A stretch of 64,000 nucleotides of DNA. Source: an uncultured Methanolobus sp. (lineage in GTDB: Archaea; Halobacteriota; Methanosarcinia; Methanosarcinales; Methanosarcinaceae). Location of the stretch: NCBI GenBank assembly GCA_963675495.1, contig OY776215.1, forward strand, positions 96,001 to 160,000. Reading direction: 5' to 3'. Within the stretch, counting starts at the first letter, position 1, and each line of letters opens with the position of its first letter. The notes below the pieces were generated by a model. It did not search any database, had not been told where the DNA came from, and was given only the letters and a program-made list of their open reading frames with translations. Made by a program: the position numbers and the translations under genes. Shown here piece after piece: positions 31,026 through 46,051 of this stretch.

Positions 31026-31103
31026 GCTCCGGTAGTGTAGTCCGGCCAATCATTCCGGCCTTTCGAGCCGAAGACTCGGGTTCGAATCCCGGCCGGAGCA
31101 CCA
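31026..31103 (+). tRNA. tRNA-Glu (TTC), CCA encoded
   Basis: Acceptor GCTCCGG/CCGGAGC-A-CCA, anticodon loop CT-TTC-GA, T-loop TTCGAAT. Confidence 0.96.
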
Positions 31104-42761: not shown

Positions 42762-43397
42762 GTGGATAAAGAAGTCAAGCCTTCAATAAAGGTATCAAAG
42801 AATGGACCATATATTGTAAAAGATCTTAAATTATTCAGGAACTCAAAGAGTGTTTTCATCGAGACAAAACCCGTTATGACACTTTGCAGATGTGGAGGCT
42901 CGGTAAATATGCCATTCTGCGATGGAACACATACAAAGAACGGTTTTTCCGGTGACAATGAAAAAGACCGTGTTGCCAGCAAAGTTGAAACTTACGTCGG
43001 GAAAAATATTAGCATCCACCGTAACAAAGATGTGTGTTGCCATGTAGGTCATTGTGTTCGTACTCTGCCTTCTGTTTTCAAAAAGGGTGAAAAACACTGG
43101 GCATATCCGGATGCTGTAAGCCCGGAAGAGATCGCAAAACTAATCAAGACATGTCCTTCTGGCGCATTGAGCTATACTATTAACGGAGAAATGCATAAAG
43201 AATATCCACATGAGCCGGAAATCTTTGTTCTGAAGGATGGACCTTACAATGTTACAGGGATAGAGCTTAATGACCCCGATGGTTCAGAACCCGAAACCCA
43301 GGACCATTATTCCCTTTGCAGATGTGGAGCCTCTAAAAATAAACCATTCTGTGACGGCAGTCACCGCGATGTTGAATTCAAAGATGATAAGAATTGA
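42762..43397 (+). CDS. CDGSH iron-sulfur protein with central ferredoxin-like domain
   Basis: Two CRCG-x5-PFCDG(T/S)H motifs flanking CCHVGHC and CPSGAL. Confidence 0.92.
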   Translation: MDKEVKPSIKVSKNGPYIVKDLKLFRNSKSVFIETKPVMTLCRCGGSVNMPFCDGTHTKNGFSGDNEKDRVASKVETYVGKNISIHRNKDVCCHVGHCVRTLPSVFKKGEKHWAYPDAVSPEEIAKLIKTCPSGALSYTINGEMHKEYPHEPEIFVLKDGPYNVTGIELNDPDGSEPETQDHYSLCRCGASKNKPFCDGSHRDVEFKDDKN

Positions 43398-43532
43398 ATC
43401 TCCTTGATCTTTTGATATAATATTCAAAAGATAACTCTAAGGGCAATAAAACTGCTCTGGATGGTCTTTCTCAAGTAATTTACAGTCATAGGACCGCCAG
43501 TACCTTATATTATAAAGCACATATAGTCACTT

Positions 43533-43781
43533 GGTTACAAGGGAGTAAGCTGTAAAATGGAGCAGCGTTCAGGGCGGGGAGCACATTGGAACCGTACCAT
43601 AACAAACTTCATTTACGCGTCGTTTGGATGAAGCAAATATTAGGTGAATATAAAGTAAATTTCAGAACGGGATAAAGCTCGTTCACACAGTCGCTTCATC
43701 AACGTATAGCCGAAATGAAGTGAAATTCAGGACGGGATAAAACCCGATCCCGTAATAACCTTCAACACCTTGTGACCACCA
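43533..43781 (+). ncRNA. Candidate structured non-coding RNA with 3' ACCA
   Basis: TATA-like CTTATATT ~25 nt upstream; 10-bp end pairing GGTTACAAGG/CCTTGTGACC; long internal helices; two related ATAAA-loop hairpins. Confidence 0.6.
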
Positions 43782-44587
43782 TATTGCTTTTCTGATCGAG
43801 CTTTTGATGTTACACTATTCAGCCTTGCGTTTATTATCTGGCAGACCGGTAAAAATGTAGTTATCGGATTACAAAAGTGGGAATGAGCAATAGAATAAAA
43901 AAATTAAAAATGATTTGTATTCGGATGTAAAGCAATTTATTTTATCTTTGTATGTGATATCCAATTTAATCACCTAAATCAAAACGTATATTTGTTTTTT
44001 GCAACAGAAATTGCGAATATATATCGCTTGAACGTCATTTTTCCTCAATTGTGAAAGTGATATCAAAAGTACGGTTGGACTGCAACACAAGCATTTGCTG
44101 AAATTGTAAATAGCAAAGCAAGAATTTAGAAAATCATCACAGCCTGTACAACATGTTATACATCACATTAGTATATTAAAAATATATGATTAGTGGAGAA
44201 TGAAGATTATCTCTCAGTATCCGATTTTCATATTTATCTTAAAGGATCATTGAGTATGAGTTGCATTACTATGGAGCTGGTCAGTTGTTTGGGGCATAGA
44301 GCATCTATGAGTTATGTGTATATATTTCCAGGTGAATTTTCAGGAGCAATCCTTCCCAGTTGAATCAACTCTCACTTTTATTGATACTTATTCTTTCAGT
44401 AATGACTACTCACAGCAAAAAACAGTGGAGAAGCAAATCATACATACACGCCGGTTACTGTCGATAATAAAACTGTAAGAGAATAATAATAGAGAGTACT
44501 TTTTTCAGAAAATGTAAAAAAGAGTCACGATATCGATTAGCCCACTAAATATTGTGGAGATCCAAAAAAAAGAGAAATGGTAGAGAA

Positions 44588-46051
44588 TCACTCTCTCCAT
44601 TCGTATATGTAGTTCGTTCTGTAGGTTGCTCCATTGCTGTATGTGTAAAGAATTCTGAATGAGCCTCCAAATGCGTTTTCCCACGGTGCATTTGCCTTGA
44701 ATGTACCTTCTTTGATGGTGCCTGTTGCATCCTGCCAGTCCATCTTGAAGTAAGCTCCATACGTTTCATCTTCCAGCTTGTAGTGGCTTGAGGAACCTCT
44801 ATCAATTGGCATTTCAGCCATATCTATGTCAATAGCGCTTGTATCACCAAGTCCAAGTCCGCCAGTTTCCATGAAGGTGGCTTCTTTTGTTACTTTGATT
44901 GAAATCTCTTCTTCAGCAGCATAGAAGTCCTTTGGTTCTTCAGAGATCGTTCTTACCTGTGCAGTTTCGCCTTTGTCCCCGATGTCACTGGTCCAGACAT
45001 TAGCTCTTTCGTAATCTACATCGTAGCTATAGTAGTCATGCGTGCTTACCACCTTGTCACCGTAGTCTTCAACTGTTGTAAGATACCAGCCAGGTACTGT
45101 GTCTGATGTGCTTGTACTAGATGACGATGCTACTCTGGTTCCTGTCCAGCCACCGCTCCATCCTGCACTATCAGAGCCATATCTCCAGTTTCCGGTGAAT
45201 GAATTACCATCACTGCTCAGTTTTAGTTCTGCGTCACCTGCATCGTTTGGTTCTGCGTATGAAGGACTTTCGGACCAGGTTCCTATGAATACATCACCGT
45301 TTACAACACCTTCAAGTCTTCCCTCATCATGTGTGTATTCACCGATGATCTTATCGCCTGATTGTGTGAATGTCATATCGCCCCAGTTCGAAGTCCATTC
45401 TCCTACGAAGCTGTGCGATGTGCTTTCTGCTGTGAATCCGCTTTGTGGAGTTGGTATTTCTTCTGTTGAATCTGCGTTTTCAAAATCTGCTTGCTGGCTG
45501 CCTATCGTTGTACCGTCCAGCAGGTCCAGTGGTATTGAGACTGTTGCTCCGTCTATTATCTCAAATTCTACGGATTCTTCAACTCCTGCTCCACTTATTA
45601 TTACTTTGTAGTCTCCAAGTGGCCAGCCTTCATCTGGTTTTTCAAGAATGAATGTTCCACGTCCAAAGTCTTCACCTGTTTCAGATTCGAAAGTGTGGAT
45701 CGAGTAATCTGTGTCAAGGTATATCCATTCTATACTTATTATGTCGTTCTCGAAGTTATCGTAAATGAACCATGCGTACAATTCTTCTGAATCCTTTGAA
45801 TATTTCAGTACTTTATCGACTGGTATGAAGTTTTGTGTTGCTGATGTCATCATCACTTCAAGAAGTCGTGGTTCGCCTGTGGCTGTCATGTCACCATATT
45901 TATCCGTTACTGCCTCTACGATCTGCTGTTCTTCTTCGGTTGCTCCGAAGCTTCCAGGTTTATATGAGTCACTTATATCCGTACATCCTGAAAATGCTAT
46001 TATGCCTATCAAGAGTAATGCTACTACTATTTTTGATTTCATTTTTACCAT
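44588..46051 (-). CDS. Secreted/lipoprotein hypothetical multidomain beta protein
   Basis: Lipobox FSGC; acidic; Ser/Thr linkers; beta-barrel-like GEWTSNWG to FTGNW segment. Confidence 0.8.
   Translation of the reverse strand: MVKMKSKIVVALLLIGIIAFSGCTDISDSYKPGSFGATEEEQQIVEAVTDKYGDMTATGEPRLLEVMMTSATQNFIPVDKVLKYSKDSEELYAWFIYDNFENDIISIEWIYLDTDYSIHTFESETGEDFGRGTFILEKPDEGWPLGDYKVIISGAGVEESVEFEIIDGATVSIPLDLLDGTTIGSQQADFENADSTEEIPTPQSGFTAESTSHSFVGEWTSNWGDMTFTQSGDKIIGEYTHDEGRLEGVVNGDVFIGTWSESPSYAEPNDAGDAELKLSSDGNSFTGNWRYGSDSAGWSGGWTGTRVASSSSTSTSDTVPGWYLTTVEDYGDKVVSTHDYYSYDVDYERANVWTSDIGDKGETAQVRTISEEPKDFYAAEEEISIKVTKEATFMETGGLGLGDTSAIDIDMAEMPIDRGSSSHYKLEDETYGAYFKMDWQDATGTIKEGTFKANAPWENAFGGSFRILYTYSNGATYRTNYIYEWRE

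Follow-up and report, generated by a model that had tools for sequence, protein, structure and literature searches.

What is encoded in the gene-free stretch behind an iron-sulfur protein gene of an uncultured Methanolobus species? The stretch lies within 64,000 nucleotides of DNA (hereafter the window; positions 96,001 to 160,000 of contig OY776215.1, assembly GCA_963675495.1), the ORF list of which shows no open reading frame (ORF) of at least 40 amino acids in any frame between 43428 and 44192. A sequence-only reading had pointed to positions 43504-43781 as a structured RNA with an acceptor-like end and two competing folds, and had suggested a stand-alone small RNA (sRNA), possibly a protein sponge with two equivalent loops, a conformational switch or a substrate of tRNA-end processing enzymes. 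We found that positions 43533-43781 of the + strand are the gene of a stand-alone non-coding RNA of ~249 nt with its own archaeal promoter. The family to which this RNA belongs appears, from the sequence comparisons made, to be uncatalogued, and its design is like that of the bacterial sponge RNAs, to which it seems unrelated. The RNA may act as a multivalent protein-binding sponge or scaffold whose number of sites differs between species, which is the leading reading though well short of secure.

A clamped array of hairpin modules

The + strand of the locus has a predicted folding energy of -76.7 kcal/mol (z = -4.5, equalled by 0 of 200 shuffles) and the - strand fold has a z of -3.0. Basically, the RNA consists of a 10-bp terminal clamp that encloses three hairpin modules of ~55-75 nt (all coordinates of its parts refer to the + strand). 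The clamp helix P0 is formed by GGTTACAAGG (RNA GGUUACAAGG; 43533-43542) and CCTTGTGACC (RNA CCUUGUGACC; 43768-43777), which are fully complementary with one G-U pair. The 3' strand is followed by ACCA (43778-43781) and the 5' strand is preceded by a TATA-like CTTATATT (43504-43511); what had been stated about the sequence of these elements was correct throughout. The consensus fold was obtained with RNAalifold from 18 distinct three-module elements of the genus, being the window RNA and 17 relatives (together referred to as the 18 congeners). On this fold 97.0% of the 842 cells are paired, against 28-46% when the 3' partners are slid, and nine pairs have both partners changed, where shuffles give 3.5 +/- 1.2 (as many in 0 of 500). 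Within the clamp all 178 lettered cells pair, column 4 is changed on both sides (CG 14, UA 2, UG 2) and G-U or U-G wobbles occur at five positions.

Inside the clamp, the leader pairs in the RNAalifold consensus through GCUGU (43549-43553) with AUAGC of linker 2 (43706-43710); 96.6% of the cells of this helix are paired, and being nearly invariant it is weakly supported. Module 0 (43555-43614) combines a closing helix of AAAUGGAG (43555-43562) with CUUCAUUU (43607-43614), in which 97.9% of the cells are paired and two pairs are changed on both sides, with a diverged upper hairpin (43574-43577 with 43592-43595) that has an enlarged loop. Linker 1 (43615-43626) contains GCGU (43617-43620), which is predicted to pair with ACGU (43702-43705) of linker 2 (ACGUAUAGCC, 43701-43712), the segment that also serves as partner of the leader. 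This helix between the linkers is paired in 93.1% of the cells, and the composition of pair 93:189 (GC 10, GU 5, AU 3) and of pair 95:187 (GC 15, AU 1, 2 unpaired) suggests that it has some real support. Module 1 (43627-43700) is the most diverged of the three. Its closing helix, UGAAG (43629-43633) with CUUCA (43694-43698), is 97.8% paired with one change on both sides, its upper hairpin reads GAACGGG-AUAAAG-CUCGUUC (43665-43684), and an insertion of 22 nt (~43635-43656), present in the window and in none of the 17 aligned relatives, holds a degenerate second copy of the 5' arm (AUAAAG). Module 2 (43713-43766) is the canonical and most conserved module, with a closing helix of UGAAG (43716-43720) and CUUCA (43760-43764), a conserved internal loop AAAUUCA / CGUAAUAA, and an upper helix of GGACGG (43730-43735) with CCG-A-UCC (43744-43750, bulged A) around the loop GAUAAAAC. 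Between the hairpins of modules 1 and 2 (43665-43684 and 43730-43750) the compensatory differences that had been claimed are indeed present, in the form of a double change from A-U to G-C, a change from G-U to G-C, and the bulged A. The three modules are too diverged to be recognized by Tandem Repeats Finder, which reported no repeat in the window.

Relatives in the Methanosarcinaceae

When 61 genomes of the family were searched at the DNA level, full-length relatives came up in the own genus at 67-80% identity. In three other genera the search recovered tandem arrays of a ~50-nt stretch that is equivalent to window positions 43713-43764, with as an example one array of 8.4 copies of a 68-nt unit at 97% identity. 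All follow a shared design: a conserved promoter, a 5' clamp strand (GGUYAYAAGG, or GUUCAYRAGG in Methanosarcina-type loci), a short leader, a variable number of modules set apart by linkers of ~18 nt (consensus UGACGCGUAAGCUGUAAA), a complementary 3' strand, two to four A/C bases and a T-run. In total 48 distinct complete elements were delimited, 45 of which were used after removal of an alternative end call, an element truncated upstream and one on a doubtfully binned contig. These 45 elements are 98-837 nt long and contain 1-15 anchor matches (1-11 by a stricter parse). Methanolobus elements, including that of the window, have three modules; elsewhere the number ranges from 1 to ~15. The earlier description of a duplicated module with two equivalent loops was thus right with respect to the loops, which recur as the defining repeat of the family, and wrong with respect to their number.

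The 45 elements were chosen by the presence of a TATA box and 10 of 10 clamp pairs, so that their 100% clamp pairing is by construction. The clamp sequence differs between genera on both strands: GGUYAC/GURACC is swapped for GUUCAC/GUGAAC, and position 2 is GC in 17, GU in 3 and UA in 25 of these elements selected for pairing. In a less biased test, the best 10-mer pairing between array flanks reached 10 of 10 pairs for 36 of 56 arrays and, once the flanks were shuffled, for 9 of 56, which is a real but blunt signal.

For the modules themselves, 113 non-redundant sequences (<90% identical) out of the 194 found were aligned. The common fold comprises a closing helix of 7 bp, (A)AUGRAG / CUUCAU(U), a short AUU/AAU helix, an upper helix of 6-7 bp (GGAC-R-G with C-Y-G-(A)-UCC, including the bulged A) and an 8-nt loop nnUnAAAn with an invariant U, a variable base and three A's. 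Pairing is seen in 87.1% of the 1998 cells; sliding the 3' partners by 1-3 columns lowers this to 26-45%. In 500 shuffles the observed values for paired cells, double-change cells and covariation score were never reached, whereas the count of pairs with a double change was matched by 184. The clearest covarying pair, 27:38, occurs as AU in 65, GC in 30 and GU in 15 modules and is unpaired in 3, while the closing helix hardly varies and gives little evidence either way. A covariance model built from the 113 modules, all from other loci (model R1), recognized the three modules on the + strand of the window: module 2 at 43709-43775 (60.3 bits, E 8.6e-14), module 0 at 43551-43622 (43.3 bits, E 1.2e-9) and module 1 at 43644-43708 (19.5 bits, E 7e-4). 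The best match on the - strand scored 6.0 bits. Considering these scores and the fact that G-U wobbles are tolerated on one strand, the RNA is read from the + strand.

The phylogenetic range was assessed in two ways. In the counts made with R1, for which strict filters were used so that weak copies could be missed, modules were found in 68 of 151 sampled genomes of the family: 22 of 34 in the own genus, 32 of 34 in genus g7, which we take to be Methanosarcina, 6 of 6 in g13 and 7 of 11 in g16. The other 12 genera of the family gave no match in 65 genomes. In a sample of the order, 28 of 48 genomes of the own family had modules and none of the 102 genomes of five other families. The highest count in a single genome was 30 module matches. 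When species-representative genomes were scanned with an exact pattern, at least 119 stretches were returned, and among the 80 of these that were listed the loci with two or more matches were named Methanosarcina, Methanolobus, Methanomethylovorans or uncultured Methanosarcinaceae/-ales. Single bacterial matches were at chance level for a pattern of ~17 specified bases in 596 Gb. Among the genomes searched, the family appears to have members in only four genera of the Methanosarcinaceae. One contig with three matches in the pattern scan is binned as Candidatus Cloacimonadota (JAQVBK010000341.1, 3273 nt; locus L063); it carries a seven-module array (53-87 bits with R1) and is probably a mis-binned Methanosarcina contig. 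Homologs of a ~476-aa protein encoded next to Methanosarcina arrays (see below) are also labelled Cloacimonetes.

With regard to known RNAs, no Rfam 15 family matched positions 43504-43781 at the gathering threshold, nor did anything overlap them at E <= 10 when positions 43350-44250 were searched. In the parts of the literature covered, which include PMC5378194, PMC5867862, PMC3432209, PMC11456600 and the 2026 bioRxiv surveys of prokaryotic non-coding elements, no account of such an RNA was found, although it may be present as a numbered sRNA entry in the supplementary tables for M. mazei or M. psychrophilus.

Promoter and ends of the RNA

The TATA box CTTATATT stands at a fixed spacing from the 5' stem. 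In 41 of the 45 elements the TATA hexamer begins 28-30 nt before the first stem base (28 in the window RNA), in one element the distance is 36 nt, and in three no hexamer was found. Archaeal start sites lie ~25 nt downstream of the TATA box. Given the spacing of 28-30 nt, transcription would start at 43533, or adjoining it, at the first G of the clamp.

Alignment of the upstream flanks revealed a second promoter box, ATAGGACCGCCAG (43488-43500, + strand), with the family consensus ATATGACCGTCAG. The consensus contains the palindrome TGACnGTCA and lies ~5 nt ahead of the TATA box; the sequence TGACCGTCA is present with at most two mismatches in 22 of the 45 elements. The palindrome makes the box a possible site for a dimeric regulator. 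It is not common to other promoters of the own genome: among 23 GACCGYCAG sites, the combination of box and TATA box ahead of a gene-free stretch occurs at the RNA locus alone, and one other site, at genome position 84745, is accompanied by a TATA-like hexamer. A 'cold box' upstream of nine conserved cold-induced sRNAs of M. psychrophilus is mentioned in a differential RNA sequencing study (PMC5378194).

The extent of conservation agrees with a gene that ends at 43781. The RNA region is 66.5-80.5% identical to its congeners, over the whole length in 8 of 11 loci compared and over parts in the other 3. This conservation starts ~30-45 nt ahead of the TATA box and ends at 43781. The 806 nt that follow (43782-44587) gave a match, close to the following gene, with L016 alone among the 11 congener loci. 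The single-stranded tail ACCA (43778-43781) coincides with the 3' end of the RNA as observed in metatranscriptome contigs. A contig of run X2 reaches 43781 and then continues into the Illumina adapter, which itself begins with an A, so that the end is either 43780 or 43781.

Expression in metatranscriptomes

Fifteen RNA runs contain a small fraction of the words of the stretch, none of them from the organism itself; four runs from four studies were compared. In run X8, a sediment metatranscriptome, 76 contigs match the stretch. Their summed word depth over 43588-43779 ranges from 11,490 to 412,370, save for one low bin (43636-59, 7.05), and is highest at module 2. The depth is 34.2 for a contig on the neighbouring coding sequence (43300-43417, 8 mismatches), and it drops from ~131,700 in the bin 43756-79 to 0.98 in the bin 43780-803. 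The gap of at least a thousand-fold between two adjacent conserved segments implies that carry-over of DNA does not explain the depth in X8. Loose ends of the X8 contigs carry module-1 sequence of a congener and match locus L055, so that relatives rather than the window strain were seen. Run X2, a seagrass metatranscriptome, yielded the one contig mentioned above, with a depth of 137 over 43659-43781. Run X4 gave one low-depth piece that runs into the sequence of another array, and run X14 gave no match. In the RNA libraries of relatives the RNA is very abundant, with a sharp 3' boundary. Taken together, the proposal of a stand-alone structured RNA has held up on all three counts, viz. a promoter of its own, a covarying fold and a great depth in RNA libraries.

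A possible multivalent binding RNA

The nucleotides left unpaired in each module (internal loop AAAUUCA / CGUAAUAA, bulged A, U-N-AAA loop) recur in every module, 1 to ~15 times per RNA. This recurrence would be accounted for most simply by the repeated binding of one ligand, most likely a protein. In fact, since the equivalent loops are the repeated module of the family, the role of a multivalent sponge is the most economical reading. Each module would offer the same protein-binding surface, and in this way one RNA-binding protein would be sequestered or scaffolded in several copies. Transcription from a regulated promoter would determine the dose, and the count of modules the valency. The clamp and the lack of a long 3' tail could shield the RNA from exonucleases, which would explain its abundance, and the interchangeable arms and self-complementary linkers (see below) might add fold switching or the linking of molecules.

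Protein-titrating RNAs are central global regulators in bacteria. The window RNA resembles CsrB/CsrC, RsmX/Y/Z and CrcZ in being a stand-alone abundant non-coding RNA with a repeated short hairpin motif, a copy number that varies by species and a promoter of its own that is probably regulated. CsrB, RsmZ and CrcZ titrate several copies of one protein, and the same logic may apply here. The likeness does not extend to homology of sequence or structure. The loops of the window RNA are of the type U-N-A-A-A rather than GGA or CA motifs, and GGA is found inside the upper helix of the modules only, not in the loops. Moreover, the module is an irregular helix of 50 nt instead of a short stem-loop, a clamp closes the array, and the host is an archaeon. 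The Csr/Rsm system itself was tried and rejected, as the CsrA domain (PF02599) had no match in the complete own genome; the control matched in 3 of 14 reference genomes. A second resemblance is to the Y RNAs and bacterial YrlA, in which the two ends likewise form a terminal stem that leaves a short 3' overhang and which are abundant, stable RNAs of a few hundred nucleotides. In contrast to these, the interior of the window RNA is made of repeated modules, and no Rfam Y-RNA family matched it. The Ro/Y-RNA system was rejected on similar grounds (PF05731, TROVE/Ro60: no match in the own genome, control matched in 2 of 14).

We know of no archaeal counterpart of the protein-titrating RNAs, and none was found in the literature searched. 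With still more reserve, it is conceivable that the present family represents a sponge or scaffold RNA of adjustable valency, the first of its kind in archaea, in which a ~50-nt hairpin docks an RNA-binding protein of Methanosarcinaceae and the dose is tuned by gain and loss of modules and by a palindrome-bearing promoter. Major producers of methane are found in Methanosarcina, Methanolobus and Methanomethylovorans, the first of which also supplies the main model methanogens for genetics. A conserved and abundant RNA that is uncatalogued would mean that a part of methanogen cell biology is still unaccounted for; a sponge RNA, if true, would open a new regulatory layer in these organisms. The natural series of 1 to ~15 modules constitutes a ready-made valency experiment, and the presence of modules in nearly all genomes taken as Methanosarcina (32 of 34) should make knock-outs and pull-downs feasible.

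Several observations weigh against a protein-binding role or against the data on which it is built. The neighbourhoods of the loci contain no RNA-binding gene that is conserved across the genera, and profile searches of the own genome for CsrA, TROVE, RRM and cold-shock (CSD) domains found none. The sole tightly linked neighbour in Methanosarcina encodes a hypothetical protein that was not found in the own genome and has many copies in Methanoperedens, which presumably belongs to one of the five other families searched without a module match. The R1 module was not found in 12 of the 34 genomes of the own genus, most of which are 93-100% complete, and the RNA is therefore dispensable. The depths in X8 are sums over contigs of relatives and say nothing on strand or 5' end, and the first 55 nt of the RNA are uncovered in all four runs, which may be due to divergence. 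Finally, the consensus structure was derived from the same sequences that were later counted on it, and this flatters the comparison with slid partners.

Competing folds and other explanations

That the RNA can fold in more than one way had been noticed from the sequence, and this proved real. The segment ACTTCATTT (43606-43614) pairs perfectly with AAATGAAGT (43713-43721), and GATGAAGC (43627-43634) with GCTTCATC (43693-43700). In all 18 congeners the AUGRAG and CUUCAU arms are interchangeable, and three pairing registers are possible in 88-98% of the cells. Given this interchangeability, a nested rod and local hairpins (CUUCAU with the next AUGRAG) can form besides the module-closed fold; they are possible in 88.1% and 88.8% of the cells, respectively, without covariation. 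Energy minimization of the window RNA predicts the nested rod, at -76.1 kcal/mol against -66.0 for the consensus-constrained fold. The arm flanks gave the same figures for the module-closed and the local-hairpin fold (0.88 vs 0.84 at the first flanking position, low beyond). Three lines of evidence favour the module-closed fold: it is the RNAalifold consensus; arrays open with a partnerless AUGRAG and close with a partnerless CUUCAU, with one exception seen (L011); and two double changes from G-C to A-U each fall within one module (module 0 of one congener and module 1 of another). The module-closed fold thus appears slightly better supported, although the comparison alone does not decide among the folds. 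That the window RNA acts as a conformational switch is conceivable.

The exchangeable arms bear directly on the possibility that the RNA is a regulator with multiple seeds, in which CUUCAU(U) or the A-rich loops pair with many mRNAs or another sRNA, the AUGRAG copies compete for the seeds and the alternative folds switch them. The archaeal sRNA154, sRNA162 and sRNA41 of M. mazei are described as base-pairing regulators and are ~100-200 nt long. Compared by description only, they resemble the window RNA in being intergenic archaeal sRNAs of the same organism family; they differ in that the available descriptions do not present them as RNAs with a variable number of tandem modules. According to a review, sRNA154 has two functional loops and anti-RBS (ribosome binding site) sRNAs exist in Methanosarcina (PMC5867862). 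The sequence CUUCAU(U) is complementary to AUGAAG and AUGGAG, i.e. the start codon with a common second codon, every module has the nearly invariant AUGRAG/CUUCAU pair, and both the three registers and the difference between the predicted minimum of the window RNA and the family consensus fold would suit a switching of the seeds. On the other hand, the own genome contains no extended antisense target: the matches are 11-mers, up to ~14 nt among the matches listed, which is the chance level for a 2.9-Mb genome. A seed of 6-7 nt is too short for a computational test, and the seeds are sequestered in the best-supported fold. Altogether we regard such a regulator as unlikely, though it fares better than the explanations that follow.

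The head-to-tail repeats behind a promoter are also reminiscent of a precursor that is cut into unit-length small RNAs, like ToxI of the type III toxin-antitoxin systems or another processed repeat RNA, perhaps linked to defence islands. As in ToxI, the number of repeats is variable. The patchy distribution within the genus and the neighbours of some Methanosarcina copies fit such an origin: in 10 of the 45 loci, all of Methanosarcina type (L012, L018, L032, L041, L053, L065, L067, L085, L090, L122), the gene of a type I restriction R subunit (hsdR) lies upstream on the same strand with hsdS or hsdM close by. The link between arrays and restriction genes could reflect a shared genomic island or a functional connection. 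The ToxI repeat unit is ~36 nt, whereas the units of the present family are 68 nt, and no toxin gene is found downstream on the same strand; in the window the + strand has no ORF of at least 40 aa for ~410 nt behind the RNA (43782-44192), followed by two ORFs of 54-56 aa alone. A search for ToxN (PF13958) gave no match, but neither did its positive control. There was no PADLOC match among the neighbours tested, the Methanolobus locus is without restriction genes, and the family was not found on viral contigs, where two single pattern matches were not confirmed by the covariance model. The clamp ties together the two ends of the array as a whole, which speaks for a molecule that functions at full length. 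Taken together, we give a processed precursor little credence.

An equally doubtful explanation is that of a self-assembling architectural RNA, the molecules of which pair into multimers or condensates. In support of it, the linkers carry the self-complementary words ACGCGU and AGCU, the former of which recurs in linkers across genera, the arms can be exchanged between modules, the pairing GCGU/ACGY between linkers shows variants (3 AU and 5 GU vs GC 10 at pair 93:189), and the RNA is very abundant. Nevertheless, every one of these pairings can be met within one molecule, and the linker words are short.

A micro-ORF array or dual-function RNA, in which each module would provide an AUG and a peptide of ~19 aa ending at a UAA in the linker, is very improbable. 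Around a third of the modules (60 of 194) have a frame of exactly 19 open codons, and in 67 the frame stays open throughout the 66-nt segment that was considered; the loop variants read in frame as Leu/Ile/Val/Phe followed by Lys, and PMC3432209 describes M. mazei sRNAs with small ORFs. The spacing from the AUG to the 3' arm falls, however, in one class modulo 3 in 132 of 194 modules (132/31/31; 66 of 114 non-redundant ones), and 28 of the 194 have a stop at the third codon. In Methanolobus the species do not agree in the frame at the 3' arm, and the window has AUG AAG UGA at the start of its module 2 frame. Moreover, the 3'-arm codon UUC is almost never UUU, which indicates base pairing and not coding, and the changes in the upper helix are compensatory at the RNA level.

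The tRNA-like end, which the sequence-only reading had made a defining feature, fares no better, and we doubt strongly that the clamp and ACCA mimic an acceptor stem that is a substrate of CCA-adding or other tRNA-end enzymes. The window RNA and one other of the 18 congeners do encode a stem followed by A and CCA, 14 of the 18 have ACC at this place, and the RNA contig stops at ACC(A) without a U tail. Among the 45 elements, though, the stem is followed by ACC in 15, CCT in 11, CAC in 8 and another triplet in 11 (CCC, AAC, ACT, ATC, AAA, ACA), and a TT begins 2-4 nt past the stem in 38, which fits plain termination. No tRNA or tRNA-like Rfam family matches the region at E <= 10, and the first A of the adapter hides whether the last A is templated. 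Judging from its distribution, the ACCA tail is a local coincidence or at most a habit of the genus, and it is not conserved family-wide.

Least probable of all is a DNA-level element without RNA function, such as a satellite repeat or a miniature transposon with terminal inverted repeats: both ends carry inverted repeats, tandem repeats lie between them and Methanosarcina genomes have several loci, but the own 2.87-Mb genome has a single copy, the locus is syntenic near ppsA in several species, wobbles are tolerated on one strand (R1 60 bits vs 6), and the promoter is conserved at a fixed distance and the RNA-library depth very high. A CRISPR array was rejected, as in the array with the 68-nt unit the whole unit is repeated at 97% identity without a variable spacer.

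Genomic neighbourhood

Neighbouring genes are conserved at the level of the genus only. In Methanolobus the RNA locus is preceded by ppsA, a ferredoxin gene, FEN1 and the gene of the CDGSH/Fer4_19 iron-sulfur protein, which in the window (42762-43397, +) adjoins the locus. In Methanosarcina one paralogous type of locus is situated within or next to clusters of type I restriction-modification genes; the neighbours of the arrays in this genus are hsdR, hsdS or hsdM, a PRC-barrel protein (upstream in 6) and the hypothetical protein of ~476 aa. The gene of the latter is convergent and lies within a few hundred nucleotides behind the arrays in several Methanosarcina genomes (G126:C14:27898-29136, G116:C1:2534173-2535411, G110:C1:4115362-4116600), and some homologs carry DUF4352. 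As a general partner of the RNA it was rejected: it was not found in the own genome, is multi-copy in Candidatus Methanoperedens and gave no PADLOC, NCBIfam or atlas lead. We read its linkage as island synteny, not partnership.

Downstream of the RNA, the next sizeable gene of the window is found at 44588-46051 (-). The ~800 nt in between (43782-44587) are AT-rich and without any ORF of 60 aa or more. On the - strand of this part (44086-44148) there are six weak C/D-box-like Rfam matches, the best being SNORD11B with 21.9 bits (gathering score 50, E 0.51); a UGAUGA box is present, no clear D box is seen, and all scores are far under the threshold. The sole Rfam match at the gathering threshold in the whole window is a tRNA gene at 31026-31100 (+), with 55.3 bits.

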